From a bacterium (GTDB lineage Bacteria > Electryoneota > Electryoneia > Electryoneales > Electryoneaceae): a stretch of DNA of 64,000 nt. Position numbers and translations under genes: made by a program. Positions 33,223 through 64,000 of the stretch are shown here, in pieces. The DNA lies in contig CAXXKJ010000002.1 of NCBI GenBank assembly GCA_963675295.2, forward strand, positions 2,528,001 to 2,592,000, in the 5' to 3' direction. How positions within the stretch are numbered: the stretch's first letter is position 1; each line of letters begins with the position of its first letter. The notes under the pieces were generated by a model, which was given only the letters and a program-made list of their open reading frames with translations, had not been told where the DNA came from and searched no databases.

Positions 33223-33354
33223 ATTGATATCAGGTCTTCTTCCGTAGAATTCGGATAACGTATATCCTGCTACAGAAGAGGCAGTATTTAGATATTACTC
33301 GGTTAAACGGGTAGTGTACGGTATGTGATACACGTGAAGAAGTAAGGAGTATGT

Positions 33355-33993: not shown

Positions 33994-34152
33994 AAATTTC
34001 AATACCACCCGGAAATTGGTGCGGATAGATAGAATCTACGCCAGTCGTTTCGCGTGTAGCGAGTCGGATACAAGGTTTTAACAGCACTGAAGAATCGAAC
34101 GTTGCCAGTTGTGCTTGTTGAGTGCTGAACGAAGACAGGTCCTAAGGAGCAG

Positions 34153-34734: not shown

Positions 34735-34927
34735 CTGGTTTCCGGGCAGGATGAACGTTGACTTCGAAAGATTTCACCACGGATCGGCGTTCTTCTTCCA
34801 AGGGGTGGAGAACGGAACACCTGGCCCGAATTGGGTGGTCATGCAGGATATCTGTTTGTCGAACATGAATTCATGAGGCGAACAGAAACGTGACCACGAA
34901 AAGAATTTCCACAGACAGAGGTTACTT

Positions 34928-36373: not shown

Positions 36374-36790
36374 AATTTCTTGCCGTAATTCCAAAATCAA
36401 TCGTGAGAATTGCGGCAACTCTTTTGCCACGCTGAGTACTTCTGGCCACAGTTGCTTGGTAACGATTGCGGAATATTCAGTCGCATCATCCACCTGCTTC
36501 TCTTTAAATGCAGTTGAATCTGGCGTGTAAGACGAATGGGCTCCTGGTTGATCTTCTACCTACTCAGGTTCGATTCGTGCAAATCAGCAAGGCTTTCAGA
36601 AACGGCCCCCGTAGTGGAGATACCGCCATGCTGGAAATACCGCCATGTTCGGTACCTACGGAGCCCCGGGGTCGAACGCGATTTTCCATAACTTTTCCTT
36701 TGAGAACCTTCGTATGTAGAGTTACTGAAAAAGGCGCCCCGATGTGACCGAAGCGCCCTCTGCTACCTAACCTGTCCTTGGCTGATGTAG

Positions 36791-38593: not shown

Positions 38594-38746
38594 TTTCCCA
38601 TCCTCCGGTCGGGTGTTGAAGTTTCAATCGATGTTGAAAAGATACGGACCATTGTACGCAGATTCGCGAAAACCCCAACGCTGTTTATCGCTGGGGCTTG
38701 CTTTTGCTCTCGGAGATTAGCTGGTAGGCATCGGTTAGGGGATCGG

Positions 38747-39877: not shown

Positions 39878-40069
39878 TTTGCTCGCCCCTTTTCAAGCCC
39901 AAAGGTCGGTTGGAATCATCCCGTTCCAACCTCTGTTCCAACCTCCAGCAGAAAGTAAAGGGGAAAAAGAGCGAAAGCAAGAGTAAAACGCTAAGAACAT
40001 AAACAGCGTATTAACAACATAATAGAGTGATACAGGGGAATTCGGAGGGGTGGGGAGGAAGGCAATTTC

Positions 40070-48687: not shown

Positions 48688-49599
48688 ATGCGCAAGACCC
48701 TCGTGCTGCACATCGGGATGCACAAGACCGCGACGACCTCGATTCAGTCGCACCTGCTGCACCATCGAGCAATGTTGCGGCAGATGGGGGTGGAGTATAT
48801 CCCCGGGTTGGTCAAGATCGCGAGATTGATCCGCAACCGCGCCCCGATGACAGAAGAAAGCGTGCGGGAGCTGCAGGCGCACATCGAACCACTGCTATCC
48901 CTGCAGGCACCGATTCTACTTGGCAGCGCGGAAGCGTTTTTCGGGCGTTTCATGGCGAAACCGCCGGTGATGATTAACTCGCACGCATGCGCGTCCGACT
49001 TGAAGCGTATTCTCGAACCGTTCGGCCTGGATGTGAAGCTGTTCGCGGCAGTCCGGCGGCAGGATACATGGCTGGAGTCGGCGTATCAGCATTCAGTGAA
49101 GTGGAATTATGACCTGACGTTTGACGAATGGCACGCTCAGCTGGACCTCGATCTGTTTCACTGGGATCGCCTGCTCGACGGGTTCGCAGAACAGTTCGGG
49201 AAGGCCAATCTGCACGTACACCCATACGAACGCTTGTTCAAGCCGGATGGAGAGGGTGTGCGACGGTTGTACCGCCTGTTTGGAGCGGAACATCTCGCCG
49301 ATCCGAAGACCTTTCCGCGCAGCAATCCGGGTATCTCGAAACGCTGGCTGGAGGTGTTACGCCGGGCGAATTCGCTGATCGACCGCAAGGAATGCCAGCG
49401 GCTGCGGTTCTTCCTGGAACACGAATTTCCGCGCAAATCGGGCGACAAGACGATCTATTTCAGCGACGAACAACGGGTAGCGTTGCTCGAGCACTTCAGC
49501 GAATCAAATCAACGACTGTTCGACGAGTACGTTCCGGAAGGGATCGACAACAGGTACACTGTCGCGGCGGTGATGGGACGGGAAACGTTGACCGTGTGA
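48688..49599 (+). CDS. Sulfotransferase-like P-loop protein
   Basis: LHIGMHKTATTSIQ, SAE, VRRQD.WLESAYQ; start ATG 48688 with GGAG. Confidence 0.6.
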   Translation: MRKTLVLHIGMHKTATTSIQSHLLHHRAMLRQMGVEYIPGLVKIARLIRNRAPMTEESVRELQAHIEPLLSLQAPILLGSAEAFFGRFMAKPPVMINSHACASDLKRILEPFGLDVKLFAAVRRQDTWLESAYQHSVKWNYDLTFDEWHAQLDLDLFHWDRLLDGFAEQFGKANLHVHPYERLFKPDGEGVRRLYRLFGAEHLADPKTFPRSNPGISKRWLEVLRRANSLIDRKECQRLRFFLEHEFPRKSGDKTIYFSDEQRVALLEHFSESNQRLFDEYVPEGIDNRYTVAAVMGRETLTV

Positions 49600-49614
49600 T
49601 GGATGAAGGTCTGC

Positions 49615-50742
49615 TCAGAAGCGCTCTTTCTTCGCGTACATCCCGTGCAACCCTTCAGTGCAATTGGCGCACATTGGCGGGCGTTCGCCGGTGAGGATGC
49701 GTTGCCGGAATGCACGGAAGGCGTCTGATCGCCAAACCGCCGGGAAACCGGCATCGTGGGCGTTCCCGATGACAAACTCACCGTCCTTGTCGAAACAGCA
49801 GGGCACCACGGTCCCATCCCACTGCACCACCGCGCTGCCGTAAATGCGGGCACAGAAGGGCCGTTCCGCACGTTTCAGCACCCAGCGATCCTCTTTCAGC
49901 ACATAGCGCCGCAGTTTCGGATCGTCCGGCAGCCAGCGCTCGCCTTCTTCCTTTTCGAACGCTTCCAGTTGCGCTGTCTTGAACACCAGCTCGTTGGCGC
50001 CCCATTCACGCGCGAGGCGCAACGCGTCGTCGCGTTCGTGCAGGTTGTGCTTGAAAAGCAGGAACTGCCACTGCAGCACGGGGAATTTGCGGTTCAGCTT
50101 GCGTTTGATCTCGGCGACATTACGCACACCGCGTTCGACTCGATCCCATTTGCCGCCGACACGATACTGCACGTGACTTTCCGCGGATGCGCCGTCCAGC
50201 GACAGGATCAGCGTGTGCAGCCCGGAGCGGACAATCGCTTCGGCTGTGCGTGGGTTGGCGAGTGCTTCGACGTTGGTTGAGAGGATGACCCGGCTGCCAG
50301 ACGCGGTCGCGTGGCGGATGATGCCCGGAGTATCCGGATGGACCAGCGGTTCGCCCTGATTCCACAGCTGCAGCCGAATTGGGGCGGGGTGGATGCTGTC
50401 CCAGAGTGTGCGAAACTTCTCCAGTGTCATGCGTCCGCCGGGCCGGCCCAGTTCACCACGGCCGGTCGGGCAGTGCGGACACTTGAGTTGGCAGGCGGTG
50501 GTCGGTTCCAGCATCAGCATCGTCGGCGATCCCCACACCTTCGCGCGCCGGGTGACGGCTGTCGCGGCAACGGCTGCGGTGATCCTGCCGAGGTTGATGA
50601 GTTGCGGGAAAGTGATCAGCTTGATCGGATTGAGGGGGACGAGTTCATGCCAGCGTATCCGGGTACGTGACGCGGTCCGGACAGAGGTGGCGGTGCCATT
50701 GGATGTTTCGCGGGAAACGGTTGACAGTTCAGTTGACTTCAA
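49615..50742 (-). CDS. Radical SAM protein with SPASM/twitch domain
   Basis: CQLKCPHC, NQGEP, SLDG, C...WDGTVVPCCFD...C.NC. Confidence 0.88.
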   Translation of the reverse strand: MKSTELSTVSRETSNGTATSVRTASRTRIRWHELVPLNPIKLITFPQLINLGRITAAVAATAVTRRAKVWGSPTMLMLEPTTACQLKCPHCPTGRGELGRPGGRMTLEKFRTLWDSIHPAPIRLQLWNQGEPLVHPDTPGIIRHATASGSRVILSTNVEALANPRTAEAIVRSGLHTLILSLDGASAESHVQYRVGGKWDRVERGVRNVAEIKRKLNRKFPVLQWQFLLFKHNLHERDDALRLAREWGANELVFKTAQLEAFEKEEGERWLPDDPKLRRYVLKEDRWVLKRAERPFCARIYGSAVVQWDGTVVPCCFDKDGEFVIGNAHDAGFPAVWRSDAFRAFRQRILTGERPPMCANCTEGLHGMYAKKERF

Positions 50743-51535
50743 TGAACTCCACCTCGTACAAACGTGGCCACAGCTTGCCAGTCAGATAAATCTGGCCGGT
50801 CTTATGGTTGATCGCGATTCCGTTCAACACATCCGGCTTACGGATCGTGTTCACGTCCAGCAGGCCTTCGAGATACATCCACGCGACCACTTCGCCGGTT
50901 TCCGGGTCGATCTTCGCGATCAGGTCGGACGGGATCACGTTGGCGTAGATGAACCCGTCGATGTATTCCAGCTCATTCAACCCGCGTACGCCACCGACAG
51001 CATCCCATACTGGCAGGGTGTGGGTGATGCGGAATGTTACCGGGTCACGGAAGTCGATCTCGGATGTCCCATTGCTCATGATCAGCTCCGTGCCATCATC
51101 CGTCAACCCCCAGCCTTCGCCCTGGTAACGGAATTCGCCGACCCGTTCTAAGGTATCCGCGTCATACAGATGCGCGATCCCCGCTCGCCAGGTCAGTTGG
51201 ATAATCCTCCCGTTGAACAGGGTGATGCCTTCACCGAACTGATCCTTCGGAACGTCCACCTGTTTCAGCACTTCACCCGTTTCGAGATCCACGATACGTA
51301 AGGTGGATTCATTAAACTGGCCGGTGCTCTCGTACATAACACCGTCGTGAATCAGCAGGCCCTGAGTGTAGGCGGTTGTGTCGTGTGGGTAGCTGTTGAG
51401 CACGTCATAGGTGTACACCGGCGCGCCGCGGAACGTGCCCGGAATACCGTTCTGCGCATGGGACGTACCCGGATTGATGATCATGCCCAGGCAGAAGAAG
51501 AGTATCAGCGAAACAAATCGTGTCCAGAGGTTCAT
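50729..51535 (-). CDS. Glutaminyl-peptide cyclotransferase (plant/bacterial beta-propeller type)
   Basis: YPHD..AYTQGL, YESTG, FGEGIT, LTW, EGWGLT, LNELEYI, VLNGIA, TGKLWP; signal peptide. Confidence 0.92.
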   Translation of the reverse strand: MNLWTRFVSLILFFCLGMIINPGTSHAQNGIPGTFRGAPVYTYDVLNSYPHDTTAYTQGLLIHDGVMYESTGQFNESTLRIVDLETGEVLKQVDVPKDQFGEGITLFNGRIIQLTWRAGIAHLYDADTLERVGEFRYQGEGWGLTDDGTELIMSNGTSEIDFRDPVTFRITHTLPVWDAVGGVRGLNELEYIDGFIYANVIPSDLIAKIDPETGEVVAWMYLEGLLDVNTIRKPDVLNGIAINHKTGQIYLTGKLWPRLYEVEFIEVN

Positions 51536-51547
51536 GACCGTTCCGGC

Positions 51548-52696
51548 TTAACGCGTTGCCATGCGTTGTTGAAGTTTCCAACGATTGGCCAATTCGGTCA
51601 ACCGTTCGTCCGCATGCTCGAAAAACATCTTCATCGACGTACAGAAGTGGTTGCTACCATGGTCGGCGGGGTCATGCCGACGGTCCTTGGTGCAGCCGCC
51701 ATAACAGTATTTCAGCCATTTGCAGTTCGTGCACTCCGGTGGAAGATCCGCCTTCATTCTGCCGAATTCACGTTGCCGTGGTGAATTCAGCATCTCGATC
51801 AAGCGGTCCTGCATGATGTTGCCTAGCTTCCACTCCGGCTCGACGAAAAAGTCGCAGGAGAAGACGTCCCCATTGTATTCGACAACGGTGTAGCTGCCGC
51901 ATTCCGGCTGCAAATTGCAATCCGGCGGTTCCGCACCAACGTACGAATGGAACACGGAATCGAAGAAGCGGACTGTGGTGTTTTTCTTGCTGTGCTGAAA
52001 ATCGTGATACCACAGGTCGAAGACAGTCTTAAGAAATTCGCCGTATTCGTCCGCACCCACAGACCACGGGGCGGTTTTGGACGGATCATTCGGATCGAGC
52101 TCGACGCACGGAATGAACTGCATGTAGGTCAGTCCGAGGTCGCGCAGGTAGGTATAAATCTCTTCGGCGTGCTGCACCGAATAGTCGGTTACGACCGTCA
52201 GCGCGTTCGTCGCGACACCGCGATCAAGCAGCAGCTTGGCGGCGTCGGTGACGTTCTGCCACGAGCCCTTCGTCGGACTTTGGTGTCGGTAGTGGTCGTG
52301 AACGTGCTTCGGGCCGTCCAGCGACAGGCCGACGAGGAATTTGTACTTGTCGAGAAACGCAGCCCACTTGCGTCCGATCAGCATTCCGTTGGTCTGCAGG
52401 CCGTTGCCGACGATCTGGCCGCGTCCATACTGCTGCTGAAAGTCGACCGCTTTTTGGAAGAAGGGGATACCCATCAACGTCGGTTCGCCGCCCTGCCAGC
52501 CGAATGTGACCTGGCGGGTGCCGTCGCGCATCACCTGCCTGACCAGTTCCTCGAGCACTTCCTCACGCATCCGGTGCCGCTGATGGTCCTTGAACAGCTC
52601 CGCTTTCTTCAAGTAAAAGCAGTAGCTGCAGGCCATGTTACAGTCAGGGCCGGCGGGTTTGACGAGGACGGCTTGCAGGGGACGGCGAAGGGACAT
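51548..52696 (-). CDS. Anaerobic sulfatase maturase (anSME, radical SAM/SPASM)
   Basis: VKPAGPDCNMACSYCFY, WQGGEPTLMG, QTNG, GLSLDGP, SCDFFV, C.NC...CYGGC.KDR. Confidence 0.92.
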   Translation of the reverse strand: MSLRRPLQAVLVKPAGPDCNMACSYCFYLKKAELFKDHQRHRMREEVLEELVRQVMRDGTRQVTFGWQGGEPTLMGIPFFQKAVDFQQQYGRGQIVGNGLQTNGMLIGRKWAAFLDKYKFLVGLSLDGPKHVHDHYRHQSPTKGSWQNVTDAAKLLLDRGVATNALTVVTDYSVQHAEEIYTYLRDLGLTYMQFIPCVELDPNDPSKTAPWSVGADEYGEFLKTVFDLWYHDFQHSKKNTTVRFFDSVFHSYVGAEPPDCNLQPECGSYTVVEYNGDVFSCDFFVEPEWKLGNIMQDRLIEMLNSPRQREFGRMKADLPPECTNCKWLKYCYGGCTKDRRHDPADHGSNHFCTSMKMFFEHADERLTELANRWKLQQRMATR

Positions 52697-52823
52697 GGAG
52701 ATGACGCTTCGTTGTTAACAGTTCCGTGCTGGAAGATACACCATCGGAACGGGGGAGAGTTCCGCTGTGAGCGTGAATCAGGCAAATCTCCGGGGGAAAA
52801 TCAGGAAACAGCAGGGTGGTGGC

Positions 52824-54632
52824 TCACTCTTCGAGCTCAACCACCACCGTGCTGGGAAGAATGCAGCGGAAACCGATTGTTGAGGCGTACCAACTGGCCG
52901 GATATGCCGTCTCCGGCGGGACTTCCTCAATCAGATCAACTGGCGTGGAGAACGCACCCCCGACGGCAAGGCGTCCATCCGGCGGAACCTTGTCCTGCAC
53001 CCATTCGGAGGCGTTCCCGATCAAATGCACCATGGTCGTTGGGTTGATGACCAGGCCAAGGCCGGGTGCCATCCAGCTGAAGCCGTCCTGCGGGCCTAGC
53101 AGGTTGGCGTATTCACGCGAGTTGATAATCCCACCCGACAGCAGGTCGATCGCCTGCGTGAAGATCTCCTTGCTCGGAAGCCGGAAACCGCCGTTGGGAT
53201 TGACCACAGCGCCAGTATCATCGTACGCCGGCTCAAGCCCGAGTGATTCGGAACGCCAGTTGCAGAAGTCGATCGCGTCCTGCCAGGTTACCATGACCGC
53301 TGGCATGTTGTTACGCTGACTCCAGAACCCACCGGACGCATGATCCGGTTCTTCCGGCAGTTGCCGTTCGGTTTCTTCACAGAAACGTGAATACTCGGCT
53401 GCGGAAACCTCGTCGGCGTCCACGAACCACGATTCACCATTCGGCAAGTCCATCTGCATCATGCCATACGCGACCGTGCGCACAGCCTGCGAAACGGCTT
53501 CAGAAATGGCTTCATCACCGAGGCTGTTCGCACTGATGATGCGGTACGATACATTCAACCCACGGCGGGGCAGATAGTCGGTATAGGTGTTGACATCGGC
53601 GGGTAGCTCGGCAATCGTCTCAAAGTCGCCGCCGTTGATCGAACGTTGCACGAAATACGTGGTCGTAATCGGTGCCGGTTCGTCCCATGTCAGCCCGACG
53701 ACGAGGTCTTCGACCTTATCAACCTGCAGGTTTTCGACGGTGTTCATCTGCAGTCGCGCGGACACAACTTCGCTGTAGTCGCCGATGTTTTCGCCCGCCA
53801 TGCCGCGCACCCGGTAGAAGGTGGTGCGGTCGAAGTCGACGTTTTCATCGACCCAGAAGGTGTCGCCGTACGCCACATCGAAGTACATCGTGTCGAGGCC
53901 TTCCAACTTTTGCACCTCGTACTTGTGTGGCCAGTCGGTCGGCGGTGTCCAGTTCAACTGGATACTGTGGTCGCTTAGCGCGCGCACATACGGACGTGTC
54001 GGCGGCGGGAAGGACAGGTACACCGTGTCCGCCACGGACGGTTCGCTGCGGTTGAAATCAGAAACGTAGAACAAGCGGAACAGCTGTGGTTTGAACGTTT
54101 CCAGGTTCTCCACGCGCACGGTGGTGTCACCCGAGGTGATGCTGCCAACGACGTTATAAACGCCCTTGACTCGCATCTCAACGTCGATGTGGCCTTCCCA
54201 CTGCAAGCTGTCCTGCGGTGCGGTAACGACAACCTGGTCGATACCATCACGTGTCACCAGCGGCGGGGCGGGCGGAGGAAGGTCGAATCGTGCTTCGTGT
54301 TCACCGCCGTACTCGTCCAGGTACCAGACCGGTTTCGGACGCAGGCGGTAGATGTAGTTGGTGTTGACGGTCAGACTGTCATCGAGGTACTCGTTCTCAT
54401 CCTCGAACTCAGCGATTGGCTTGAAATACTTAGCGTCGCCAATTTTGCGTTCGAGAACGACGGTATAGCGCGGACGATCCCACTCGAGCAGCAGCTGATG
54501 ATCAGACAGCCACTCGGATGTGATTGCCAGCGACTGATTGCCGCCCTCGTCGGCTGCTACTGCGGAGCCCGAGGGGAACAAACAGAGGAGACAAAGACTC
54601 AGCAGCAATATCGCGCTGAACTGTCTCATCAT
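52824..54632 (-). CDS. Secreted FN3-repeat protein with C-terminal FGE/SUMF1-fold domain
   Basis: Signal peptide; FN3-like W..P / Y.YR repeats; EVSAAEY..F, VTWQDA..FCNW, FRLP, GNASEW, GFRC. Confidence 0.8.
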   Translation of the reverse strand: MMRQFSAILLLSLCLLCLFPSGSAVAADEGGNQSLAITSEWLSDHQLLLEWDRPRYTVVLERKIGDAKYFKPIAEFEDENEYLDDSLTVNTNYIYRLRPKPVWYLDEYGGEHEARFDLPPPAPPLVTRDGIDQVVVTAPQDSLQWEGHIDVEMRVKGVYNVVGSITSGDTTVRVENLETFKPQLFRLFYVSDFNRSEPSVADTVYLSFPPPTRPYVRALSDHSIQLNWTPPTDWPHKYEVQKLEGLDTMYFDVAYGDTFWVDENVDFDRTTFYRVRGMAGENIGDYSEVVSARLQMNTVENLQVDKVEDLVVGLTWDEPAPITTTYFVQRSINGGDFETIAELPADVNTYTDYLPRRGLNVSYRIISANSLGDEAISEAVSQAVRTVAYGMMQMDLPNGESWFVDADEVSAAEYSRFCEETERQLPEEPDHASGGFWSQRNNMPAVMVTWQDAIDFCNWRSESLGLEPAYDDTGAVVNPNGGFRLPSKEIFTQAIDLLSGGIINSREYANLLGPQDGFSWMAPGLGLVINPTTMVHLIGNASEWVQDKVPPDGRLAVGGAFSTPVDLIEEVPPETAYPASWYASTIGFRCILPSTVVVELEE

Positions 54633-55915
54633 CGGGTGCCCTCACGCCTGACACAACGGAAACCGACGTACTGGTAACGTTCATGCGGGAAGCGCGTTGC
54701 CCGCCGGTTTAACTGCACATTTGCCGGCGGATCGAGGTAGCTGCCACCCTTGATGACAAAGCGGACGGTGGTGTCGACTTCTTCTTCAGCCGCTTGCGGA
54801 CCGACGTTGATCACGTTCAAGCTGTCCGCACCCGTCGAATCCGGAAGTAAAGATTGTTCGCCGACCAGGTTCGGGTTTTCATACTCGGCAGTTTCTTCGT
54901 CCATGGTTGGTTGCGCACGGACTTTGAAGTTCGTCAGTGTCCATTCGGACACGTTCCCGGCCATATCGTACAACCCGGTCGGAGTGATCGAGCTGGGATA
55001 ACTCCGCACATTTTCAGGCGCGCCAATCCGAGTTACATCCAACAGGTTGGCCTGGATCGAATCTGGCTTCGTCTGACCCCACGGATAGAACATGGTCAGG
55101 TCGTTGTCGTCGTAGCTGCCGAGGCAGGCGAGAATCCACTCTTCTTCGGTCGGCAGACTCTTACCAACCGACTGGGAATAGGCGAATGCACCGAACCAGC
55201 TGACAAAGCTCACGGGCAGGTCTTCGCGGCCTTCATCCGCCACGAAGACACCGTCCTCGACCTCGGTGATATACATCCGTTCGTCGAAGAAGACCCGGTT
55301 TTCGTAACCACTGGAAAGGAAGTCCGCGAACTCAGCGTTCGTAACTTCGTTTTCGTCAATGTAGAAACCGTTCGTCCACGCGACTTCCTGCTCCGTGTCG
55401 CGGAACTTGCGGAGTGGATCCGGCAGCGGTCCCGCTGAAATCCACTTCATGTTCGCTGGCGCCATCATTGCCGGTGGGGGCGTCATCACCTGGCCGTAAA
55501 TCGGCATGCCGAGACTGTCGACCATGACCGAATCGGGCATGGTTCCGAATCCACCCAACGAGTCCTGCATCAATGAATCCGGCATCATCATGTCCATCAT
55601 CATTGTATCAGACATCGTGGTGTCCGCCATCATCGAATCAGCGTCCATCGGTTCGGTGTCTTCGTCAAACATCTCGAACACGTCGGGGGCGAGGCTGTCG
55701 CCCGGCTGCTCTTCGAACATCATCATGGTATCGGCAGCCGTCCCAGTGGTGTCCGGTTCCTGCGCGAGGATGCCAGGAGCTGTTCCGAACAGCAGGATCA
55801 CGGCCGCCAGCAGCGACACGCCGGCGGTCAAACGTACCGGCCCGGTGTTTCGGCTCATGCGCATGGTTCGACTCTCTACCATCATGGTCGTCTTCGTGCG
55901 TTTCAAATGGCTCAC
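54629..55915 (-). CDS. Secreted FGE/SUMF1-fold protein with Met/Asp-rich N-terminal region
   Basis: EVTNAEF, VSWFGA..Y, LPTEEEW, YPWG, LYDMAGNVSEW, KGGSY, GFRC. Confidence 0.82.
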   Translation of the reverse strand: MSHLKRTKTTMMVESRTMRMSRNTGPVRLTAGVSLLAAVILLFGTAPGILAQEPDTTGTAADTMMMFEEQPGDSLAPDVFEMFDEDTEPMDADSMMADTTMSDTMMMDMMMPDSLMQDSLGGFGTMPDSVMVDSLGMPIYGQVMTPPPAMMAPANMKWISAGPLPDPLRKFRDTEQEVAWTNGFYIDENEVTNAEFADFLSSGYENRVFFDERMYITEVEDGVFVADEGREDLPVSFVSWFGAFAYSQSVGKSLPTEEEWILACLGSYDDNDLTMFYPWGQTKPDSIQANLLDVTRIGAPENVRSYPSSITPTGLYDMAGNVSEWTLTNFKVRAQPTMDEETAEYENPNLVGEQSLLPDSTGADSLNVINVGPQAAEEEVDTTVRFVIKGGSYLDPPANVQLNRRATRFPHERYQYVGFRCVRREGTR

Positions 55916-56844
55916 TGGGCGGGATCTCCTCCGCCAGGCTCAGGTTCCGTGTTCGTCGTATCCACACCGGCGGCAGCGCCTGCTGGATCCGGCGACTCAT
56001 CTTCGGCAGGCGTTGTTTCCGCCTCTGCGCCACCAGTCTGATCCTCGGGCTGTGCAATGGCTTCACCCGTTCCGGGCTCGGTCGTCGCCGCATCCGGCGT
56101 CATCATCGTGTCCGGTGCAATCGTGGTCGTTCCGGAGGTAGCATCATCAAGTGGAATGCCAACGCCCGGGAAGACCGGCGAATCCATGTCTTCCTGCGAA
56201 ACGAGCACGGGTACGTAAACCGTATCCGTAGTCAGCTCACGGATATACACCTTGAGCAAGTCATAGTTCAGCAGGGTATCGGCGATACCGGACGGGCTAC
56301 CCGCGGAATACCGCATGTCCTCTTCGGAGTAGTTCCAGAGGGTCAGCGTCGCGACATCCCTGTCCTTGGTAATGCGGAACAGTCCCTGGATGTAATTCCC
56401 GGTGTAGTAGTACTGCACACCCTTGACAACGGTTGCGAGAATGCCAGCGAACGGCGATTCGAGCACACGCGCGTCTTCCTGAATCTGGGTGACATTCAGC
56501 GTCGGAGCGGAATACGTCTTGTTTTCCTCGAACTCGTACAAGTTGAGGATCGACCGTTCCGTCTCGTTGATCTCGAGCAACGGGAACACTCGTTCCTGCG
56601 GATAGACGATCATCAGATCGCCCTGTCCGAAGCCGTTCCGGGTCACATCGATGAACTCGACAGAGTCAATCGCAATGGTGGGGCTGATCAACTGTCCCCG
56701 CCGGAACGTCTCAATGACTTCCGAATCAGCCACCTTGACCGAGTGGACTTCCTTCGGCTTCACTTCTTCATCCTGCGCCAGCAGGAGGGAGGAGGAGGCC
56801 AGAAGGAGCATGATGGCTATCAATCCCCCAAGCCTGCGCGTCAT
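55912..56844 (-). CDS. Hypothetical secreted protein with acidic tail
   Basis: Signal peptide ...LLLA/QDEE; coupled on both sides by 4-nt overlaps. Confidence 0.75.
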   Translation of the reverse strand: MTRRLGGLIAIMLLLASSSLLLAQDEEVKPKEVHSVKVADSEVIETFRRGQLISPTIAIDSVEFIDVTRNGFGQGDLMIVYPQERVFPLLEINETERSILNLYEFEENKTYSAPTLNVTQIQEDARVLESPFAGILATVVKGVQYYYTGNYIQGLFRITKDRDVATLTLWNYSEEDMRYSAGSPSGIADTLLNYDLLKVYIRELTTDTVYVPVLVSQEDMDSPVFPGVGIPLDDATSGTTTIAPDTMMTPDAATTEPGTGEAIAQPEDQTGGAEAETTPAEDESPDPAGAAAGVDTTNTEPEPGGGDPAQ

Positions 56845-58547
56845 CCTGTCTCCTCGAGCAAGTGGAAGTAGTGCTCAGCTCGGTTGAGATCGTTGAGATT
56901 TCGATATGCGGTGACAAGCAACTCGTAGAGGATTCGCCGGTCCGTAGGCGCAAGTTGGCTTGGCAGCTCCTGTGCGAGGGCTGCTTCACCGTAGCGCACC
57001 GCCCGTGTTGGATCCTGCTGGCTCATATTCGCCAGCGCCATCAGTGCGAACGCCTGATCCTTGTGCGGAAGCAGGGCGGACTGATAGTAGTAGACAAACG
57101 CTTTTTCACGTGTCCGGTCGTTCTTTTCAAGCCGGTTGGCGTAAATGGTTGCGAACGAGCCATACAGCTCGAGGACGCGTTCCATTTTGCCTGGCAGCTG
57201 GGTCAGCTGCGAGGTCATCAAGCGGCCGAAACCATCTTCGCCATTGTGAACCAGCAGCGTATCGAGGCTGGAGTCGATTTCGGTGTAGCCGACGCCGACC
57301 AGCATGTTGCGCAGACGGTCGAGCGCGGCTTCCGGTTCGTCGAGGTAACCGAAATCCAGCACCGCGGCCAGCGTATCCATCTCGAGCTGGGCGTTCCCGG
57401 CGACGAGGTCGTCACGAATCCCGCGGATTGCCTTCCGCGCTTCTTCGTGCTGGCCTTCGTTGATCATCTCGATGATCGGGATGCGAGCGGAGGCTGTGTA
57501 GATGTTGCCTTCGTCCCAGCCGATCCACTCGAGCATGTCCTTGGCGGTTGCGGCGAATACGGTGTCCGAAGGTACGCCGGGCCGGGCCATCGCCTGCAGC
57601 CGATTGGCATTGCTGATGAGGTCATTCCCCATCATCAGGTCCTGTTCGAGGTACATCTGTTCTCGAACGAGTAACAGCCAGTCGAGATACTCCAGGGAAT
57701 CCAGCTGGGTACGGCGTCTCAGCGGTTCGCCCGACAACCCGAACTGCGAGATCGGCGCCCAGGTCAGCAGCAGATCCTCTGACCGGCGGTACATGCGCAG
57801 GGCAGAAAGTGAATCCCCTTGCAGCATGTAGCGGTCACCCAGGTGCAGGGCGGTCAGGTAGTCGGATTGGTTGGTGCCGAACAGAATTTCTGTCTGTTCA
57901 ATCGCCTTGTCGAGGTTGTCGAGTGACTGGTGCAATTTCGCCAGGTCTTCCAACACTTCGATAAGACGGACACGTGACCAGTTGTCCCACGGGTTGTAGG
58001 TCAACGCTTCCTGCAGGAAGTCGCGAGCGGTTTCCAGGTGTCCGGCAGCCCGTTCGCGGATGGCGGGGCGGATGCGATCCAACTCCGTCATCGACAGGAC
58101 ATACACCGGTTCCCCGAGAATATCCTCGACGGCGACAATCTGCTCATCGACTTCGAGCGTAATCTCGAAGGCGCGCATGGTGTCGGCCGGATCCGGCGGA
58201 ATGTCAGGGGGAGTTGCACCCTTTTCCCAGAGTTCGACCAGCGGATGGCCTTGCGCGCGCACCTTTTCGGCTCGTTCGAAGTACGAACCGCTGATCGAGT
58301 CGGCCTCAGCGCCGACCATGACATGGCGGGCCGCTCGTGTTGCTTCACGTGCGACAGCCGTGTCAACCCCGGTGAATGCGACCAGGCTCAAGTCCATGGT
58401 ATCCGCCACGGATATGTCGCCGGGTTCCAGTGGCTCGGGCGGCGGTTCACGCCGTACCTCGCCTCCGGACGTGCAGCCATACATCCATAATGCAGCCAGG
58501 ATGAGGATGGCTGGGATCAGAGTTCGGAAGAATGCTGGTTGTTTCAT
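56841..58547 (-). CDS. TPR-like alpha-helical lipoprotein
   Basis: Start MKQPA (58547), lipobox MYGC; TPR-like motifs (ALTYNPWD, LGDRY...GDSLSA...Y, AYRNLNDLNRAEHYF). Confidence 0.7.
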   Translation of the reverse strand: MKQPAFFRTLIPAILILAALWMYGCTSGGEVRREPPPEPLEPGDISVADTMDLSLVAFTGVDTAVAREATRAARHVMVGAEADSISGSYFERAEKVRAQGHPLVELWEKGATPPDIPPDPADTMRAFEITLEVDEQIVAVEDILGEPVYVLSMTELDRIRPAIRERAAGHLETARDFLQEALTYNPWDNWSRVRLIEVLEDLAKLHQSLDNLDKAIEQTEILFGTNQSDYLTALHLGDRYMLQGDSLSALRMYRRSEDLLLTWAPISQFGLSGEPLRRRTQLDSLEYLDWLLLVREQMYLEQDLMMGNDLISNANRLQAMARPGVPSDTVFAATAKDMLEWIGWDEGNIYTASARIPIIEMINEGQHEEARKAIRGIRDDLVAGNAQLEMDTLAAVLDFGYLDEPEAALDRLRNMLVGVGYTEIDSSLDTLLVHNGEDGFGRLMTSQLTQLPGKMERVLELYGSFATIYANRLEKNDRTREKAFVYYYQSALLPHKDQAFALMALANMSQQDPTRAVRYGEAALAQELPSQLAPTDRRILYELLVTAYRNLNDLNRAEHYFHLLEETG

Positions 58548-58596
58548 CTCGCTCTCGCTGTGCGGGAACGTTCTGCCTGTTGTAGCATGGCGTTTT

Positions 58597-59613
58597 TCAC
58601 TGGGACGAGTTCCACCAATCGATGAAGATGTCCATGGACTCACCGGCGCGCGGATCGCCAGGGCTGATCTGGCTCATCTGCAAGCTCATACGATTGCCGC
58701 GAACCAGTACTCGACCTGCCTGGAAGCTCTCGCTGCGAGAGCCTTTTGCGCCAATGTCTGTTAGCAGGACGCCGTTAGTTCCTTGCACAAGGAAAATCTT
58801 GATCTCGGGCGGATTACCGTCACGTCCGAGCAGGTAAATCGTGTACTCCGTACCGTTGGGCGCCTTGTATTCAGCCGTTGTCGTCAGGTCGCCCGCCTGG
58901 TAGTTGAAATATTCCGGTTCTTTCAAGTCCTGCGGGATCTCGCGCTGATTGTCCCGCATCCACTCGATAATGGGGGAGACGTCTGATTCGATACTCCCCG
59001 TCGCGGCTTCATCTTCCAGTGTTGGTACGCTCGGACCTTCGCCAACGTCGAGAGACGCACGTCCAGCGGAACGATCAGAGCGGTTTCGTACGGAACCGCG
59101 ATCACCACGTCCCAGGCTGGCACGTGAACCGGCACCGACTTCGACGGACGCGTCACCACGCGGCACGACGATCGCAGAGGTGGAAGCGCGATCTGTTTCA
59201 CGCCGTGCGCCGAGGTCCCGGTCACGTCGCATATCCTGACGGCTGCTGCGTTGCCGCTCCAGATTCAGATCGATTTCCTGCTGCAGCGCGACTTCCTGCT
59301 GCCGCATGCGTTCGCGATCCATCGGTTCACGTTCACGCCGTTCTTCACGCCGTTCTGTCTGCCGGCGTTTAGGGGCTTCTTCCTTCTCTTCCTCTTCCTG
59401 CTCGTCTTCCTGCCGGACTTCCTCGCGTTCTTTCGCCTTGACGATGTCCACAATCACTTCACGGAGTGCTTGCGGCATCTGGGGCGACGTCACGAGGACT
59501 CTCAGCATTGGGAAGACCGTGAACAGGAACAGCATGATCAGGCCGCCCAAAGCGAGCGAGATCCATAAGGCTCGCTTCCGCTTTTTTTGTTCTGGTTCAA
59601 TATCCCAGAGCAC
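58597..59613 (-). CDS. TonB/TolA-like energy-transducer candidate (single TM, charged linker, novel C domain)
   Basis: N-terminal TM after KKRKR; E/R/Q-rich extended linker; directly after the exbD pair. Confidence 0.55.
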   Translation of the reverse strand: MLWDIEPEQKKRKRALWISLALGGLIMLFLFTVFPMLRVLVTSPQMPQALREVIVDIVKAKEREEVRQEDEQEEEEKEEAPKRRQTERREERREREPMDRERMRQQEVALQQEIDLNLERQRSSRQDMRRDRDLGARRETDRASTSAIVVPRGDASVEVGAGSRASLGRGDRGSVRNRSDRSAGRASLDVGEGPSVPTLEDEAATGSIESDVSPIIEWMRDNQREIPQDLKEPEYFNYQAGDLTTTAEYKAPNGTEYTIYLLGRDGNPPEIKIFLVQGTNGVLLTDIGAKGSRSESFQAGRVLVRGNRMSLQMSQISPGDPRAGESMDIFIDWWNSSQ

Positions 59614-59615
59614 AA

Positions 59616-60152
59616 TTACTCCCCGGCTGAAGCTTCGTCTTCAGTAGGCGAATCGCCGGACAGGTCGACACCCGGGAAGGGTAGTTCGAGCTGCTGAGCG
59701 ATATCGTAAATATCGATCGTGCCGCTGACCGGTGACAATTCTGTCGGGATGACGTTGACGGCTTCGATTTCCTTCCCGAATTCGTCCATCAACGATCGTA
59801 GTTCCCGCTTCAGTGCCGCCGGGCTGTCAGCCACACGGTTTACGTCGACCTCGTCACCCTGCCGCCAATTGATCAGGTACTCCGGGTTGAAGAGTTCGAC
59901 GGTATACTGGCGAACCTGGCCGTCTTCGTCAAGTCGTTCACGGTTTTCCGCGCGCATGTTCTCCACGGTTGCCGTGACGATGATGCTGATGATCGCCAGA
60001 TTCTGCTCTTCCTCGGACTGTTCCTGCGCTTCCTTTTGAGTATAGGGGAAGCGTATCCGGGATTTTTCAGACAGGTCTGCGATGGAAACAAAGCCGACGA
60101 GGATGATCAGCACCACGTCGATCAGGCGCAGGATTGTTCCTTGGCCTCCCAT
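59616..60152 (-). CDS. ExbD/TolR-like protein 2 (divergent)
   Basis: ILRLIDVVLIILVGF TM with conserved Asp. Confidence 0.7.
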   Translation of the reverse strand: MGGQGTILRLIDVVLIILVGFVSIADLSEKSRIRFPYTQKEAQEQSEEEQNLAIISIIVTATVENMRAENRERLDEDGQVRQYTVELFNPEYLINWRQGDEVDVNRVADSPAALKRELRSLMDEFGKEIEAVNVIPTELSPVSGTIDIYDIAQQLELPFPGVDLSGDSPTEDEASAGE

Positions 60153-60165
60153 GGCTCACCTCTCG

Positions 60166-60549
60166 TTAGCGTTGATCGTGGAAGACGACAATCAAGCTGC
60201 GTGCGAGATCATGTCTGTCGGCAGCCTGAATCACCTTCTTGACTTGTCCCATCGGCGCGCCTTCATCAGCCCGAATGCGAATGTGGAGACTGTCGCCGAA
60301 AACCGACGTTTCGCCAGCGCTGGACAGGTACCGCTCCAGCCTGACAAGGTCCCACGGTTCGCGCTCGTCCTGGAAGAAGATATCTCCCCAGACATCGACG
60401 CTGATCGTAACATTGCCCTCGGTACTGATGTCCGGGGTTCGAACAGTTTCGGTTTCCGCGAGTTCCAGTTTTCGCTGGTTCTCGATGGTTGCCATGCTGA
60501 TGAACCCGAAGAGCACGATCAACACAATGTCGATCAGGCGCAAAATCAT
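60166..60549 (-). CDS. exbD: ExbD/TolR biopolymer transport protein
   Basis: LRLIDIVLIVLFGF; IRIRADEGAPMGQVKKVI. Confidence 0.82.
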   Translation of the reverse strand: MILRLIDIVLIVLFGFISMATIENQRKLELAETETVRTPDISTEGNVTISVDVWGDIFFQDEREPWDLVRLERYLSSAGETSVFGDSLHIRIRADEGAPMGQVKKVIQAADRHDLARSLIVVFHDQR

Positions 60550-61310
60550 TTCGCGCTCTCCTCAGACTTCTGTTGCTGACGCTTCTGCTGTGCGCGGTTG
60601 ACGAAGTGGAAACGAAGATCGTCGGCCTTGTTGTACATCTGCTCGAGCTGACGTTTGAACATCGCTTCCAAGGTCGTAGCAAACAGGTTCAGCATCACGG
60701 AAATCGCAATACCGACAAGGGTGGTAACCAACGCAGTACCCATCCCGGCGAGGGTGGTCTGGGTATCCAGAACGCCGCCGGTGAAATAGAATACCTGGTA
60801 CATGCCCCAGACGGTACCCAACAGACCAAACGAACCAGCCGAGTCGGACAGGAAGATCATCCAGGACCGGAAGGAGGCGAAACGCTCTTCACGCACCTTG
60901 GTGATCAAATCGACTTCCGCGTGGAAGTTCAGGTCCCCTCGAATCCCCATCGCGTACAGAATCGCGAGCAGACGTCCCATTTCGCCCTTGTTCGCGCGGC
61001 TACGCACGAGCTTGTCAACCTCTTCGGGGTTGCCACGGGCAAAACGGAAGCCGATCAGAGGCTTCGAGTTATTGGTTTCCATGGTCAGCGTGCCGAACTG
61101 ATAGAAGCTGACTACCAGACCGGCGAAGAGCGCGAGCCCCAACGGCCAGACAAAGCCCTGAAGCTGGTCGATCAGGTCACCGACCGTGAAGTTGCGGGTC
61201 GTATCCGCAGCATCCGAGGTTTCCTGTGCGTACCCCATGGACGCCAGCAGAACCAGGCCGGCAACCATACCGCCGACTCCGAGGAGCCGCTTCACTTGCT
61301 CTGTTCTCAC
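60546..61310 (-). CDS. MotA/TolQ/ExbB proton channel protein with signal peptide
   Basis: GSFGLLGTVWGM and GMGTALVTTLVGI channel motifs. Confidence 0.9.
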   Translation of the reverse strand: MRTEQVKRLLGVGGMVAGLVLLASMGYAQETSDAADTTRNFTVGDLIDQLQGFVWPLGLALFAGLVVSFYQFGTLTMETNNSKPLIGFRFARGNPEEVDKLVRSRANKGEMGRLLAILYAMGIRGDLNFHAEVDLITKVREERFASFRSWMIFLSDSAGSFGLLGTVWGMYQVFYFTGGVLDTQTTLAGMGTALVTTLVGIAISVMLNLFATTLEAMFKRQLEQMYNKADDLRFHFVNRAQQKRQQQKSEESAK

Positions 61311-61349
61311 TGCACCACCTCTTCGATTCGTGACTCTATGTGACGTGTT

Positions 61350-63212
61350 TTACTCGTTCGCTTCCGTGTCCTCAACTTCATCTTGAACCGGAAGTGGGCG
61401 ATTTCGTTCAGGATTCAGGATCAGCTCGAAATCGGTCGCTGTCCGGTCACCCCCAGCCAGAGCTTTACGAATATCGATATTCCGATGGACCTCGTGGTGA
61501 ACAACTCGCATCCGTCCTTGTCCACCGAGCATCGTTACACCATCTGGCCGGTCATACGTAAACATGTATTCGTAAACTCCCGGCGGGAGCAGGGAGCCAT
61601 CAGCCGCGCGTCCGGTCCACACGATCTCATCCGGCATCGTTGTGGGCGATCCGAGGTCCAAGATAACCTCATTAGCCCCCAGATCGCGAATAGTAAATCT
61701 CCAATCAGCAGAAAACTCATTACTGAAAGCTTTGACGATGTAAAATGGGACCTCACCGACGAAGCGATCTTCAATAAATACGGGGCCTTTGCCCATCAGA
61801 GAGTCGACCGTGGCCAAGCTGAGTTCGTTCGTAAACTCGTTCTTAATCGGGACTTTCTTCTGAACTTGATAACCCCCACCGGTGATCACCTGCTCGAGCC
61901 CCTTGGCGCGGAACACGGATAACTGCGGTGCGATCACCTCGGCCTCGACATCATCCTTCTTCAGATAATGGCCCATCGTTTCCAGAGCACCGAGGTACTC
62001 CGGGGTGTACATCCCGACAGGCGGACGGCTGCGCACACGGTTCGCGCCGGGAATTTCCGCTTCGGCTCGAACGCTGATCTGGCGTTCGTCACCGAAGTCG
62101 CGGGGGCGCAGGTTCATCCGTTCCACCTGACCAAGCGCATCATCCACACGTGCCGTGGTATTGATGTGGCGGATGTTCAGCTCCGTATCCGGCGTGTACA
62201 GATAGATCTGGCCACGAGGGTCTGGAATCGGCCATTCGACACCCTTCGGGTCGTGCAACGGAATCGCGGGGAGGTCCTTGACCTCCGGCAGCGGACGCCG
62301 CTTGTAGGCATCGTAGACAAAGCCGAAACGGTGCGTACCATCCGACAGCAGATCGATCTCTGTCATCGGGTAGTCGTACCGGTAATTGAAGTACCAATTG
62401 TCAACGAGGTGGAACTCAACTTCCGACCAGATGGAACGCTGCCCGCCGTTCAATCGGATCATTGCGCCGTTCCCGATTACCCGGGCGACACCAAATTCCA
62501 GCCGGTCCTGCAGCTCAGTCCAATAGGATGTCTGTCCTGCGGAGCTGAAGTGCGCGTTTTCGACGCTGACCATCGCGGCGCGTAGCTGCCACCACTGGTT
62601 GATACGAAAGACCGCACCACCGCTGAAATGCCAACGTTCCTTCCACTCGCGTTCGCCGACACTCAGGTTCGGCCTGTTGATATCCTCCCACACCGCTGCG
62701 ATCTGCAGGCTCGGAATGGGGCGGAGGAAGATGCCGACGCTTGTGGACCAGTTGACCTTGAAGTCTGCTTCCTGAATGATCGGGTCGCTGAAATCGAACC
62801 GGTAGAATTCCAGCTGATCGTAGTCCATCATAAATGCGTCGAAACTGGCACCCACCGACAGTTGCCGCATGATGGGAATACCCAGTGACGCGCGCCACTG
62901 CGTTTCGCGGTACAAACCGGATTGCAGGTATTGAATGCCCGTTGCCAGCCCACGCCACTTCCACGGGAAGTGATAGCCGAGCATGCCCCCGTGAACCGTC
63001 GTGAAGTTGTCCGTCAGCGACGGATGGTAGAACGTACCCGTGATGCTGAATTTGTCACGGATCCAAGGGTTCAACGCCGGGTTGACAAAAACCGACTCGA
63101 GCAGGTTCAACTCCGCCGGATTCTGCCCATAACGATTGTACGCATGGGCAGTCGTTGCTCCGAGCTGGAGCAAAAACGGCAGTAGCAGGATTCCGAGGAG
63201 TTGTCGTCGCAT
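61350..63212 (-). CDS. PorP/SprF-like T9SS outer-membrane barrel with C-terminal extension (FlgD-Ig-like)
   Basis: Signal peptide MRRQLL; FVNPA, DINRPNLS, YRYDY...DGTHRFG; C-terminal WTGRAADGSLLPPGVYEY. Confidence 0.7.
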   Translation of the reverse strand: MRRQLLGILLLPFLLQLGATTAHAYNRYGQNPAELNLLESVFVNPALNPWIRDKFSITGTFYHPSLTDNFTTVHGGMLGYHFPWKWRGLATGIQYLQSGLYRETQWRASLGIPIMRQLSVGASFDAFMMDYDQLEFYRFDFSDPIIQEADFKVNWSTSVGIFLRPIPSLQIAAVWEDINRPNLSVGEREWKERWHFSGGAVFRINQWWQLRAAMVSVENAHFSSAGQTSYWTELQDRLEFGVARVIGNGAMIRLNGGQRSIWSEVEFHLVDNWYFNYRYDYPMTEIDLLSDGTHRFGFVYDAYKRRPLPEVKDLPAIPLHDPKGVEWPIPDPRGQIYLYTPDTELNIRHINTTARVDDALGQVERMNLRPRDFGDERQISVRAEAEIPGANRVRSRPPVGMYTPEYLGALETMGHYLKKDDVEAEVIAPQLSVFRAKGLEQVITGGGYQVQKKVPIKNEFTNELSLATVDSLMGKGPVFIEDRFVGEVPFYIVKAFSNEFSADWRFTIRDLGANEVILDLGSPTTMPDEIVWTGRAADGSLLPPGVYEYMFTYDRPDGVTMLGGQGRMRVVHHEVHRNIDIRKALAGGDRTATDFELILNPERNRPLPVQDEVEDTEANE

Positions 63213-63216
63213 ATGC

Positions 63217-63939
63217 TTAACGGAGTACGTAAATGACACCGGAAGCTAGAATTTCCAAGTCTTCTTCCACGATGATGAAGTAGGGGCCGGGACGAACTTC
63301 ATGCCCGAGCCTGTCCACTCCATCCCAGATAATCTCGCCGTTCCGCAGGCTGCGTTTGCCCAGCGACATCACTCGGATGCCGTCCAGCCCAAAGATCCGC
63401 ACCAGCGGCTTCGTGAAGCCCTGGCCCGGACGCGCAACATGCAGCTCGTCGTTATACCCATCCCCGTTCGGCGTGAACGGAAGGGGATACACCTCAACAC
63501 CGTTTTCAAGGTACCCGTCCGCCTTGGTTTCACGCGTCGGGGCTTTCTGCATCGCCTGTTCGATCTCGTCCCACTTATCGCCCTGCACGAACAACGTCAA
63601 TGTGGAAGGACCGGAATATGGGCGTCCCTGCAGGCGGAATGTCGTGTCCAGGGTCACGGTCAGCCGGCTGTTCTTCGGCCATGTTCCAACCGGCCGCAGT
63701 AGGAGATTGTTGCCAGACACGGTCACAGACGCAGGAACATTCTCGTCGGTTGCCGTCGTGACGACGACAGCGGAGCTCACACCATCTGCCATCACCGGGC
63801 GGTCGAACTGCACGATCACGGGGTCGCCGGGCTTGACGATTCCTTCGGTCGCGCCGCCGGCTTCCGGCTGCAAGGTGACTGGCCACGCCAGCACCGGCAG
63901 CAGGCAGATCAACAGTATATATAGAGGAGTGCGAACCAT
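63217..63939 (-). CDS. Ig-like (Big_5) protein with T9SS type-B (gliding-motility-associated) CTD
   Basis: VQFDRPV...L.P...W Ig fold; PFTPNGDGYND...WDG...GPYF...GVIYVLR. Confidence 0.8.
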   Translation of the reverse strand: MVRTPLYILLICLLPVLAWPVTLQPEAGGATEGIVKPGDPVIVQFDRPVMADGVSSAVVVTTATDENVPASVTVSGNNLLLRPVGTWPKNSRLTVTLDTTFRLQGRPYSGPSTLTLFVQGDKWDEIEQAMQKAPTRETKADGYLENGVEVYPLPFTPNGDGYNDELHVARPGQGFTKPLVRIFGLDGIRVMSLGKRSLRNGEIIWDGVDRLGHEVRPGPYFIIVEEDLEILASGVIYVLR

Positions 63940-64000
63940 TACGGACGCTCCAACTGAATGCGAGTTGTGTCAACTGGCGCGTAATCGCGCGGCGTCATCA
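63939..64000 (-). CDS. 3' end of the upstream operon gene (partial)
   Basis: ...MTPRDYAPVDTTRIQLERP* with a TAATG stop/start overlap at 63937-63941. Confidence 0.55.
   Translation of the reverse strand, partial: MTPRDYAPVDTTRIQLERP

Follow-up and report, generated by a model that had tools for sequence, protein, structure and literature searches.

Gene content and conservation of the cluster

We analysed a 64,000-nucleotide stretch of a bacterial genome of the phylum Electryoneota (GTDB family Electryoneaceae; GenBank assembly GCA_963675295.2, contig CAXXKJ010000002.1, positions 2,528,001 to 2,592,000 of the forward strand), referred to here as the window. At its end lies a gene cluster that combines components related to type 9 secretion systems (T9SS) with genes for a Ton/Tol-type ion motor. 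From 65072 down to 52824 the minus strand carries eleven co-oriented genes, A to K, which overlap or are separated by gaps of a few bases (Table 1). The first-pass annotation of this DNA had listed at least 11 co-oriented genes with overlaps or short gaps, and every gene it named is present on the minus strand. Its gene list stands, with the amendment that what it called a partial gene is the last 62 bases of gene A, which encodes a tetratricopeptide repeat (TPR) lipoprotein.

Table 1. Genes of the cluster and location of a related sister cluster. Positions of A to K are in window numbering and run past the window's end (64000) to 65072; aa, amino acids; CTD, C-terminal domain; FGE, formylglycine-generating enzyme; ORF, open reading frame.
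Feature	Position	Strand	Basis
A: TPR lipoprotein, 377 aa	63939-65072 (63939-64000 in window)	-	ORF and Pfam TPR matches
B: secreted Ig and type-B-CTD-like protein, 240 aa	63217-63939	-	signal peptide, Big_5, CHU_C-like
C: PorP/SprF-like barrel with ~320-aa tail	61350-63239, likely true start 63212	-	PF11751
D: ExbB/TolQ-type stator protein	60546-61310	-	PF01618
E: ExbD/TolR paralog 1	60166-60549	-	PF02472
F: ExbD/TolR paralog 2, divergent	59616-60152	-	PF02472 below cut-off; sequence
G: bitopic charged-linker protein, putative force transducer	58597-59613	-	no Pfam family
H: TPR lipoprotein	56841-58643, likely start ~58547	-	weak TPR matches, lipobox
I: secreted protein, no known family	55912-56844	-	signal peptide
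J: secreted FGE-fold protein	54629-55915	-	PF03781
K: FN3-like repeats and FGE-fold domain, secreted	52824-54632	-	PF03781
Sister cluster	L030 (G008:C1:4136000-4155999) 2241-11454; also L031 (G012), L032 (G011)		

To place the cluster among its relatives we used the 79 species genomes of the phylum in GTDB; NCBI has relatives under the names Calditrichaeota, Zixibacteria, 'Candidatus Electryonea', LCP-89 or just 'bacterium' (genomes are given here as G and loci as L, each with three digits). Full-length matches to a profile of C were obtained in 12 of the 79 (G000-G003, G007, G010, G013, G020, G030, G049, G074 and G078). The order A to K is whole in G001, G002 and G007. G010 has A to H before the locus is cut, G049 (locus L025) has B to K including the motor genes, with no A-like gene found upstream of B, and G078 (L027) has B to H up to the contig end. 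The clusters of G020 and G030 lack D-E-F, and G directly follows C. We considered whether L025, which is titled Zixibacteria, might represent spread to a second phylum and rejected this, as it is a contig of G049 and belongs to the same GTDB phylum.

More remote relatives were reached through gene G. With distant G members, 46 metagenome loci were fetched, of which we examined the 26 with a length of 9 kb or more. The one-strand order is identical in all 26. C is present in 22, the remaining four being cut at the locus edge, and B, D-E-F, H and I are present in 19, 21, 21 and 25, respectively. B lies directly upstream of C in the window and in every distant locus in which B was detected (19/19), and a TPR gene lies upstream of B in the seven distant loci tested. 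These loci have G+C contents of 0.34-0.55, and their C proteins are 16-21% identical to that of the window, yet the whole C tail is still alignable. Three relatives of the distant C proteins have NCBI names, a Rhodohalobacter sp., a Balneolaceae isolate and a member of candidate division KSB1, and these three named proteins set the taxonomic range beyond the phylum.

Against the nearest relative, G001 (85-97% protein identity), dN/dS was 0.025-0.15 for the ten genes covered (A to K without E), B being the least constrained of these. Because the gene order is common to relatives at 27-97% identity and dN/dS is low, the arrangement reflects more than chance. Judged from these gene orders, the conserved unit is A-B-C-(D-E-F)-G-(H)-I. 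The first-pass proposal that a Ton/Tol-type motor has a genetic link to both a PorP/SprF-like barrel and a type-B-CTD protein is thus borne out, the order B-C-D-E-F-G-H-I being kept across very distant loci.

RNA-library contigs from a relative about 92% identical to the window were available for comparison. One bridges I-H-G-F-E-D (56049-60893) and another H-G-F-E-D-C (57675-61757); the contigs leave 49600-52000 and parts of K uncovered, from which we draw no inference. They are consistent with expression of the cluster and cannot prove a single transcript.

Motor and probable transducer, cargo and carrier

The motor genes are recognizable by family matches. D scores 51.6 bits against MotA_ExbB, above the cut-off, and has a signal peptide and three transmembrane (TM) helices. 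E scores 35.5 bits against ExbD, also above the cut-off, and F 18.1 bits, which is below it; both have an Asp in the TM helix, within the motif R-L-I-D in E, and F has an acidic C-tail and is kept as a second ExbD gene in relatives. Each of the 42 ExbD-like ORFs from the distant loci has R-L-I-D, found with a regular expression in 36 and by eye in 6. D is one of five MotA_ExbB loci in the genome. Elsewhere in the genome are an ExbB-ExbD locus that also encodes two TonB_C proteins, a TolQ-TolR-TolA-TolB-like locus in which the TolB-like gene encodes a PD40 protein, and a further MotA-type match next to genes which, judged from their N-terminal sequences, read as MotB and flagellar switch genes. 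By gene content, the cluster's motor is distinct from the housekeeping Ton and Tol systems.

G occupies the position where tonB sits, after exbB-exbD-exbD. It has a TM helix at the N-terminus, joined by a charged linker (about 170 aa) to a C-terminal domain of about 125 aa; a weak TolA match spans the helix and linker only. The C-terminal domain matched no Pfam family at E < 0.1 in any of 24 members, and its profile gave no meaningful match to PDB sequences. With no TonB_C match, and an hhalign probability of 0.3% against a TonB alignment, G does not read as the plain TonB_C protein that would serve ordinary TonB-dependent transporters. ESM Atlas returned unnamed clusters only, both for the window's domain (0.82) and for a distant member (0.94), and cluster look-ups of ten distant G proteins gave no names. 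A profile of the domain found 170 cluster representatives among 1.84 billion proteins, 17 of them at E 1e-30 or better, and nearly all are 320-410 aa long with the domain at the C-end. Like C and I, the domain has no paralog in the genome.

TonB and TolA are described as docking on their motors through an S-x3-H motif (PMC12204202, seen in part). The TM helix of the window's G has no His, and the motif is absent. Across the family, S-x3-H is present in the G helix of all seven clusters that lack motor genes (G020, G030, L047, L048, L051, L053 and L057) and in none of the 26 that have their own. In a tree of the C-terminal domain, motor-less clusters fall in both deep clades, and well-supported branches force at least two independent changes of helix state; as related clusters do not count independently, the real events must be few, two or three. 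Such a dichotomy would be expected if G depends for its drive on a 5:2 motor, be it the cluster's own or the housekeeping one. On the strength of this pattern G reads as a force transducer, TonB/TolA-like in layout.

C matches PorP_SprF in Pfam at 28.4 bits (cut-off 22.3), in agreement with its first description as a PorP/SprF-like barrel. The NCBIfam model TIGR03519 gives 36.2 bits over positions 6-291 of 292, below its cut-off of 90.55. Two distant orthologs score 32.9 and 24.7 bits with the Pfam model, and NCBI calls relatives PorP/SprF. C is the only clear PorP_SprF protein of the genome, in which there is one borderline match of 20.7 bits (22.8 summed over the frame). From the family match, residues ~1-310 are predicted to form the barrel and are followed by a C-terminal tail of about 310-330 aa, in which a Pro-rich linker is followed by a middle domain and by a terminal one that matches the FlgD Ig-like domain (3osv, E 6.9e-4). 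All 21 relatives that were aligned keep the tail; used as query in a word-based protein search, it found four close relatives only. The window's C contains no Cys, and the tail is Cys-free in 15 of 19 parsed relatives with none conserved, so C does not have the short tail with twin cysteines of the SprF type. Complex prediction for the C tail (residues 311-629) with the G C-terminal domain gave a score of 0.00; it was run without controls and carries no weight either way.

Two C genes of relatives contain stop codons. In G074 the gene (L035, G074:C75, 2932-4764) is split by TAG into ORFs of 195 and 405 aa, and the C match on G049:C41 holds a TGA, yet the ORF in L025 is whole. These stops may reflect a pseudogene or assembly errors.

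B matches Big_5 at 27.1 bits (cut-off 23.6). The window copy falls below the cut-offs for the type-B sorting domain, at 23.5 bits for CHU_C (PF13585; cut-off 27) and 17.2 bits for TIGR04131 (cut-off 35); in a search of the whole genome, where no CHU_C match exceeds the cut-off, it is the top match at 25.8 bits. CHU_C is above the cut-off in four of seven B copies (the window copy and six orthologs). Long B orthologs have FG-GAP, Ig and CHU_C domains, and the window's B is a shortened version of an FG-GAP/Ig surface protein of 790-1400 aa; outside the window's genus and G007, B is 1230-1406 aa long with FG-GAP repeats and a CHU_C domain.

The cluster also encodes two TPR lipoproteins, A and H, and the secreted protein I. 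A has a lipobox in 11 of 13 orthologs or analogs by regular expression. For H, the longest ORF is 600 aa and the lipobox follows an internal Met, which gives the likely start listed in Table 1. TPR matches are weak in the window's H and clear in the distant ortholog of L055. By regular expression the H lipobox is found in 8 of 15 orthologs, in one of them within an N-terminal extension; six more show, by eye, a Cys after a hydrophobic stretch, and 8 of the 15 have a conserved P-x-G-V-D-S/T motif after the lipobox. H is absent from the low-G+C metagenome loci L059, L061, L062, L064 and L067. In I, about 220 aa form a conserved core, and the tail is of low complexity; the protein has a dN/dS of 0.054 and gave no match in Pfam, NCBIfam or PDB. 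In L061, two response regulators with DUF4388 directly follow I, and ORFs of the same size follow I in L059, L062, L064 and L067.

The remaining two genes, J and K, match FGE-sulfatase at 119.9 and 45.3 bits, respectively. J has a Met/Asp/Ser-rich N-region, and K has an additional fn3 match of 21.9 bits, below the cut-off. The catalytic cysteine pair of FGE lies near the C-end; both proteins are free of Cys from the conserved G-G-S/A stretch up to the final F-R-C motif, and J is apparently non-catalytic. Two or three FGE-fold proteins, apparently non-catalytic, have been added in this lineage. K is conserved in G002, G007, G020, G030 and G049, and both genes are absent from all 26 distant loci. 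J and K are, on this distribution, a lineage-specific add-on outside the conserved core. The first-pass annotation had treated the FGE proteins as parts of the system, driven by the motor as GldK and GldJ are. Neither has a lipobox, and their scores are far below the Gld cut-offs (GldK model, cut-off 350: J 71.3 bits, K 19.3 bits; GldJ model, cut-off 458: J 27.9 bits). Because they are non-core, lack a lipobox and score so low, the analogy of a motor acting on GldK/GldJ-like proteins has no basis, and we have dropped it.

Type 9 secretion in the phylum and surroundings of the cluster

The genome as a whole has the marks of type 9 secretion. SprA is encoded (830 bits), a 1314-aa ORF stands before a PorV-like gene, and the type-A CTD proteins number at least 150 (150 scored of 421 candidates). 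SprA is present in 75 of the 79 genomes of the phylum. Models of GldL, GldM and GldN gave no match above cut-off in any of the 79, and GldK gave none above cut-off in the window's own genome. These searches had no positive control (in 14 control genomes, where no T9SS is expected, the Gld models gave 0 matches), and a divergent GldLM could escape them. Within that limit no canonical GldKLMN system is found elsewhere in the genome or phylum, in line with the first-pass interpretation. Because the cluster is found in 12 of the 79 genomes but SprA in 75, the cluster, on its distribution, cannot be the general T9SS engine of the phylum.

We also looked for a hidden gldKLMN operon near GldK-model matches elsewhere in the genome and rejected it, the neighbours reading as kinase fusions and unrelated genes. 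One such region, G000:C2:3363827-3372187, lies outside the window and has five ORFs with Ser/Thr protein kinase-like N-termini; two of these (frames of 933 and 529 aa) are the genome's best matches to the GldK model, that is, to the FGE fold.

A sister theme was observed in genomes of the same family as the window's. A FliG-like protein of 501-543 aa, with FliG_M and FliG_C at its C-end, is followed by MotA and MotB/OmpA, and these runs continue with a 1543-1556-aa FG-GAP/Big_5/CHU_C protein and then a PorP_SprF barrel fused to TPR repeats (Table 1). The PorP-TPR protein is full-length in 9 of the 79 genomes, all of family f1 and none in the window's genus. G010 and G013 have both this and the Ton-like cluster.

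The upstream boundary of the operon is plausibly marked by a strong terminator-like hairpin (65572-65549), located after a tricorn-protease gene, and a promoter-like site (65184-65157), both upstream of A. Scans for promoters and terminators within the operon gave nothing above shuffled sequences. The sigma-54 promoter pattern had 14 matches in the locus, fewer than expected by chance, and none in the intergenic stretch upstream of A. No Rfam family was found in the window from 49000 to 64000. The upstream neighbours, at 65600-71482 in window numbering, encode a 1094-aa protease of the tricorn type and a subtilase that has a type-A Por_Secre_tail domain.

Downstream of K, at 49615-52696 on the minus strand, are an anaerobic sulfatase maturase (TIGR03942, 425 bits, above cut-off), a glutaminyl cyclase and a radical SAM/SPASM gene. 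These three genes are co-oriented with the cluster and stay there only in the close relatives G002 and G007. The presence of a sulfatase maturase, an enzyme that makes formylglycine, beside non-catalytic FGE-fold proteins is curious, but is not more widely conserved. Predicted signal peptides of C orthologs, D, I, J and the cyclase often end in A-Q, which would leave Gln first in the mature protein; together with the nearby cyclase gene this recalls the pyroglutamate 'Q-rule' of Bacteroidota. Farther away, positions 26000-40000 of the window have a G+C content of 0.44-0.53, compared with about 0.58 elsewhere in the window, and may be a foreign island.

Proposed function and relation to known machines

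The system that most resembles the cluster on its outer-membrane side is SprB-SprF/GldJKLMN of Bacteroidota. In both, the gene for a type-B-CTD surface protein adjoins that for a PorP-like carrier (as described in the accessible parts of PMC12635249 and PMC9143113), the carrier has a C-terminal tail that is periplasmic in SprF and predicted to be so here, and there is a 5:2-type inner-membrane ion motor. According to the part of PMC12635249 available to us, SprF's C-tail in the periplasm links the adhesin carrier to an energised periplasmic structure, and this tail is short, with twin cysteines, and disulfide-bonded to GldK. In contrast, the tail of the window's C is about 310-330 aa long without conserved Cys, and the motor is of the ExbB/ExbD type rather than GldLM, with a TonB-like transducer between it and the outer membrane. 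FGE-fold proteins are nearby in the window's lineage, but unlike GldK and GldJ they are not lipoproteins, are far below the cut-offs, and are absent from most of the cluster family.

On the inner-membrane side the cluster resembles a Ton system, having ExbB, ExbD with a TM Asp, and a bitopic long-linker transducer encoded just downstream, with the SxxxH helix in its motor-less variants. It differs in having two different ExbD proteins, a transducer C-terminal domain unlike TonB_C, and as partner a PorP-like barrel instead of a plugged 22-strand transporter. The Agl-Glt machine of Myxococcus comprises a TolQ-like and two TolR-like proteins, TonB-like proteins, TPR proteins, outer-membrane barrels and a surface adhesin. 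The likeness of our cluster to it is one of parts only (one TolQ-like and two TolR-like proteins, a TonB-like protein, TPR proteins, barrels and a surface adhesin), and here the adhesin ends in a type-B CTD of the T9SS and comes with a PorP-like carrier.

Transducers with a C-terminal domain other than that of TonB, namely vWA, are described as adjoining TPR, tolQ and two tolR genes (PMC12204202, in the part seen). The layout is shared, with a TPR gene, a gene like tolQ and two unlike tolR-like genes followed by a transducer of TM helix, linker and globular domain; the C-terminal domain of G, however, has no vWA or other Pfam match, and the window's cluster adds a T9SS cargo-carrier pair. The available text of PMC12204202 does not describe the G family. 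PorP-PorE-PG1035 of Porphyromonas gingivalis likewise brings a type-B cargo together with a PorP barrel and, beneath the outer membrane, a TPR-bearing lipoprotein (PMC9143113, as far as seen), whereas A and H have TPR only, without a beta-propeller or OmpA domain, and the motor and transducer are part of the window's unit. We found no title or abstract describing an assembly of PorP/SprF carrier, type-B cargo and ExbB/ExbD motor, and nothing on T9SS in Calditrichaeota, Caldithrix or Calditrichota. The parts (ExbB/ExbD, PorP/SprF carrier, type-B cargo and TPR lipoproteins) are known; a description of their assembly was not found in print.

We think it somewhat probable that the operon encodes a self-contained envelope machine, a private proton-driven Ton-like force line for one type-B cargo-carrier pair. 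B would be exported through the SprA translocon and stay bound to the carrier C, as type-B cargo of Bacteroidota does; such cargo is described as staying on its carrier (PMC9143113, in part). ExbB5 and a heterodimer of the two ExbD proteins would convert ion flow into movement of G, which would span the periplasm and engage, through its C-terminal domain, either the periplasmic tail of C or a scaffold of H, I and A under the outer membrane. As a result the carrier-adhesin complex would be pulled. The output could be to free (eject) the loaded carrier from the translocon, a step identified as the energy-requiring one of type 9 transport in the portion of PMC12635249 that we could consult, or to move or re-shape the adhesin on the surface.

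Several points weigh against this proposal. The link from G to C, H or I is one of gene order, and the proposal goes by sequence for the C barrel, for where its tail lies and for how the G C-terminal domain folds. The window's G lacks the His by which TonB and TolA dock on the motor. Family matches are weak for C (below the NCBIfam cut-off), for the CTD of B (below both cut-offs) and for F (below the ExbD cut-off). In this genus B is only 240 aa and has no FG-GAP repeats, and because of this shortening an adhesin role for the window's own copy is doubtful. G007 and G078 carry the cluster with no SprA match, at completeness of 91% and 88%, and the C gene of G074 is interrupted by a stop codon. 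The RNA evidence consists of assembled contigs of a relative, in which DNA carry-over is possible.

Other functions would use the same parts. The Ton-system layout of ExbB-ExbD-ExbD-transducer, the TonB-type SxxxH helix of motor-less variants and the ligand-binding type of the FG-GAP and Ig domains of B are what one would expect of TonB-dependent-like uptake or gating, with C as a gated channel opened by G and B as a SusD-like binder. However, C has no plug or TonB-dependent-receptor domain and belongs to a family of carriers for cargo with a T9SS sorting domain, which B bears; the C-terminal domain of G is unrelated to TonB_C, and the conserved core has no inner-membrane transporter or binding protein. 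We regard such a gate as unlikely. Very unlikely, in our judgement, is a Tol-Pal-like tether or assembly aid that would hold the carrier-adhesin complex or stabilise the outer membrane and do no work on the adhesin. The run of TolQ-like, TolR-like and TolA-like proteins and a TPR lipoprotein does recall tolQRA-cpoB, and PorP is described as binding the TPR-bearing lipoprotein PorE, which is anchored to the cell wall (PMC9143113, seen in part), but the genome has a Tol locus with a TolB-like PD40 protein elsewhere, no TolB, PD40, Pal or OmpA domain was found in the cluster, and the patchy distribution (12/79) is unlike that of a housekeeping tether.

There is a slim chance that the cluster replaces GldKLMN, as a general energy chain for SprA with FGE proteins in place of GldK and GldJ. 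The missing GldL, GldM and GldN matches in all 79 genomes, the lack of GldK above cut-off in the window's genome, the 75 genomes with SprA, the 150 or more type-A cargo proteins, and a 5:2-type motor and FGE-fold proteins within one cluster would all fit. They must be set against a cluster restricted to 12 of the 79 genomes, FGE proteins that are not lipoproteins and are absent from 26 of 26 distant loci, and a cargo and carrier of its own always within the cluster, which suggests a private function; the Gld models, moreover, lack a positive control and may have missed a divergent GldLM. As for a chance neighbourhood, in which a T9SS cargo-carrier pair would happen to lie beside an ordinary Ton system serving transporters elsewhere, runs of ExbB-ExbD-ExbD-TonB-TPR are common in the FCB group and would make it conceivable. 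We hold it to be scarcely credible, since the order is kept in all 22 loci with the upstream side in view, at 16-21% identity of C, the C-terminal domain of G is not TonB_C and is confined to this architecture, and where the motor genes are lost G still adjoins C and its helix changes.

The proposal of a private force line has a further-reaching form, which we consider tentative and rather unlikely, in which the cluster is a third independently built machine for surface motility or adhesin actuation in Gram-negative bacteria, a Ton-like motor and a new class of transducer driving a T9SS-delivered FG-GAP adhesin through a PorP-like carrier. If this were true, this phylum, KSB1 and Balneolaceae would have in it their counterpart of GldLM-SprF-SprB and Agl-Glt gliding, and the FliG-MotA-MotB sister clusters would demonstrate that more than one wiring of type-B carrier pairs to 5:2 motors has occurred.

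The known roles of Ton-type motors are mainly in import and in Tol-Pal, and to our knowledge T9SS and gliding have been thought to be powered by GldLM/PorLM only. The cluster suggests that a Ton-like motor can have a carrier of T9SS cargo in the outer membrane as its client. It also sharpens the question of what powers type 9 secretion in these bacteria, which have SprA and, in the window's genome, at least 150 type-A cargo proteins, yet no GldL, GldM or GldN match. Periplasmic force transducers make up a short list, to which G adds a new family of C-terminal domain; the two helix forms of G, dedicated and SxxxH, offer a natural experiment on the matching of motor and transducer. Because NCBI names cultured Balneolaceae among the carriers, the system is testable. 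Taken together, these findings in little-studied bacteria point to a powered surface machine of an undescribed kind.

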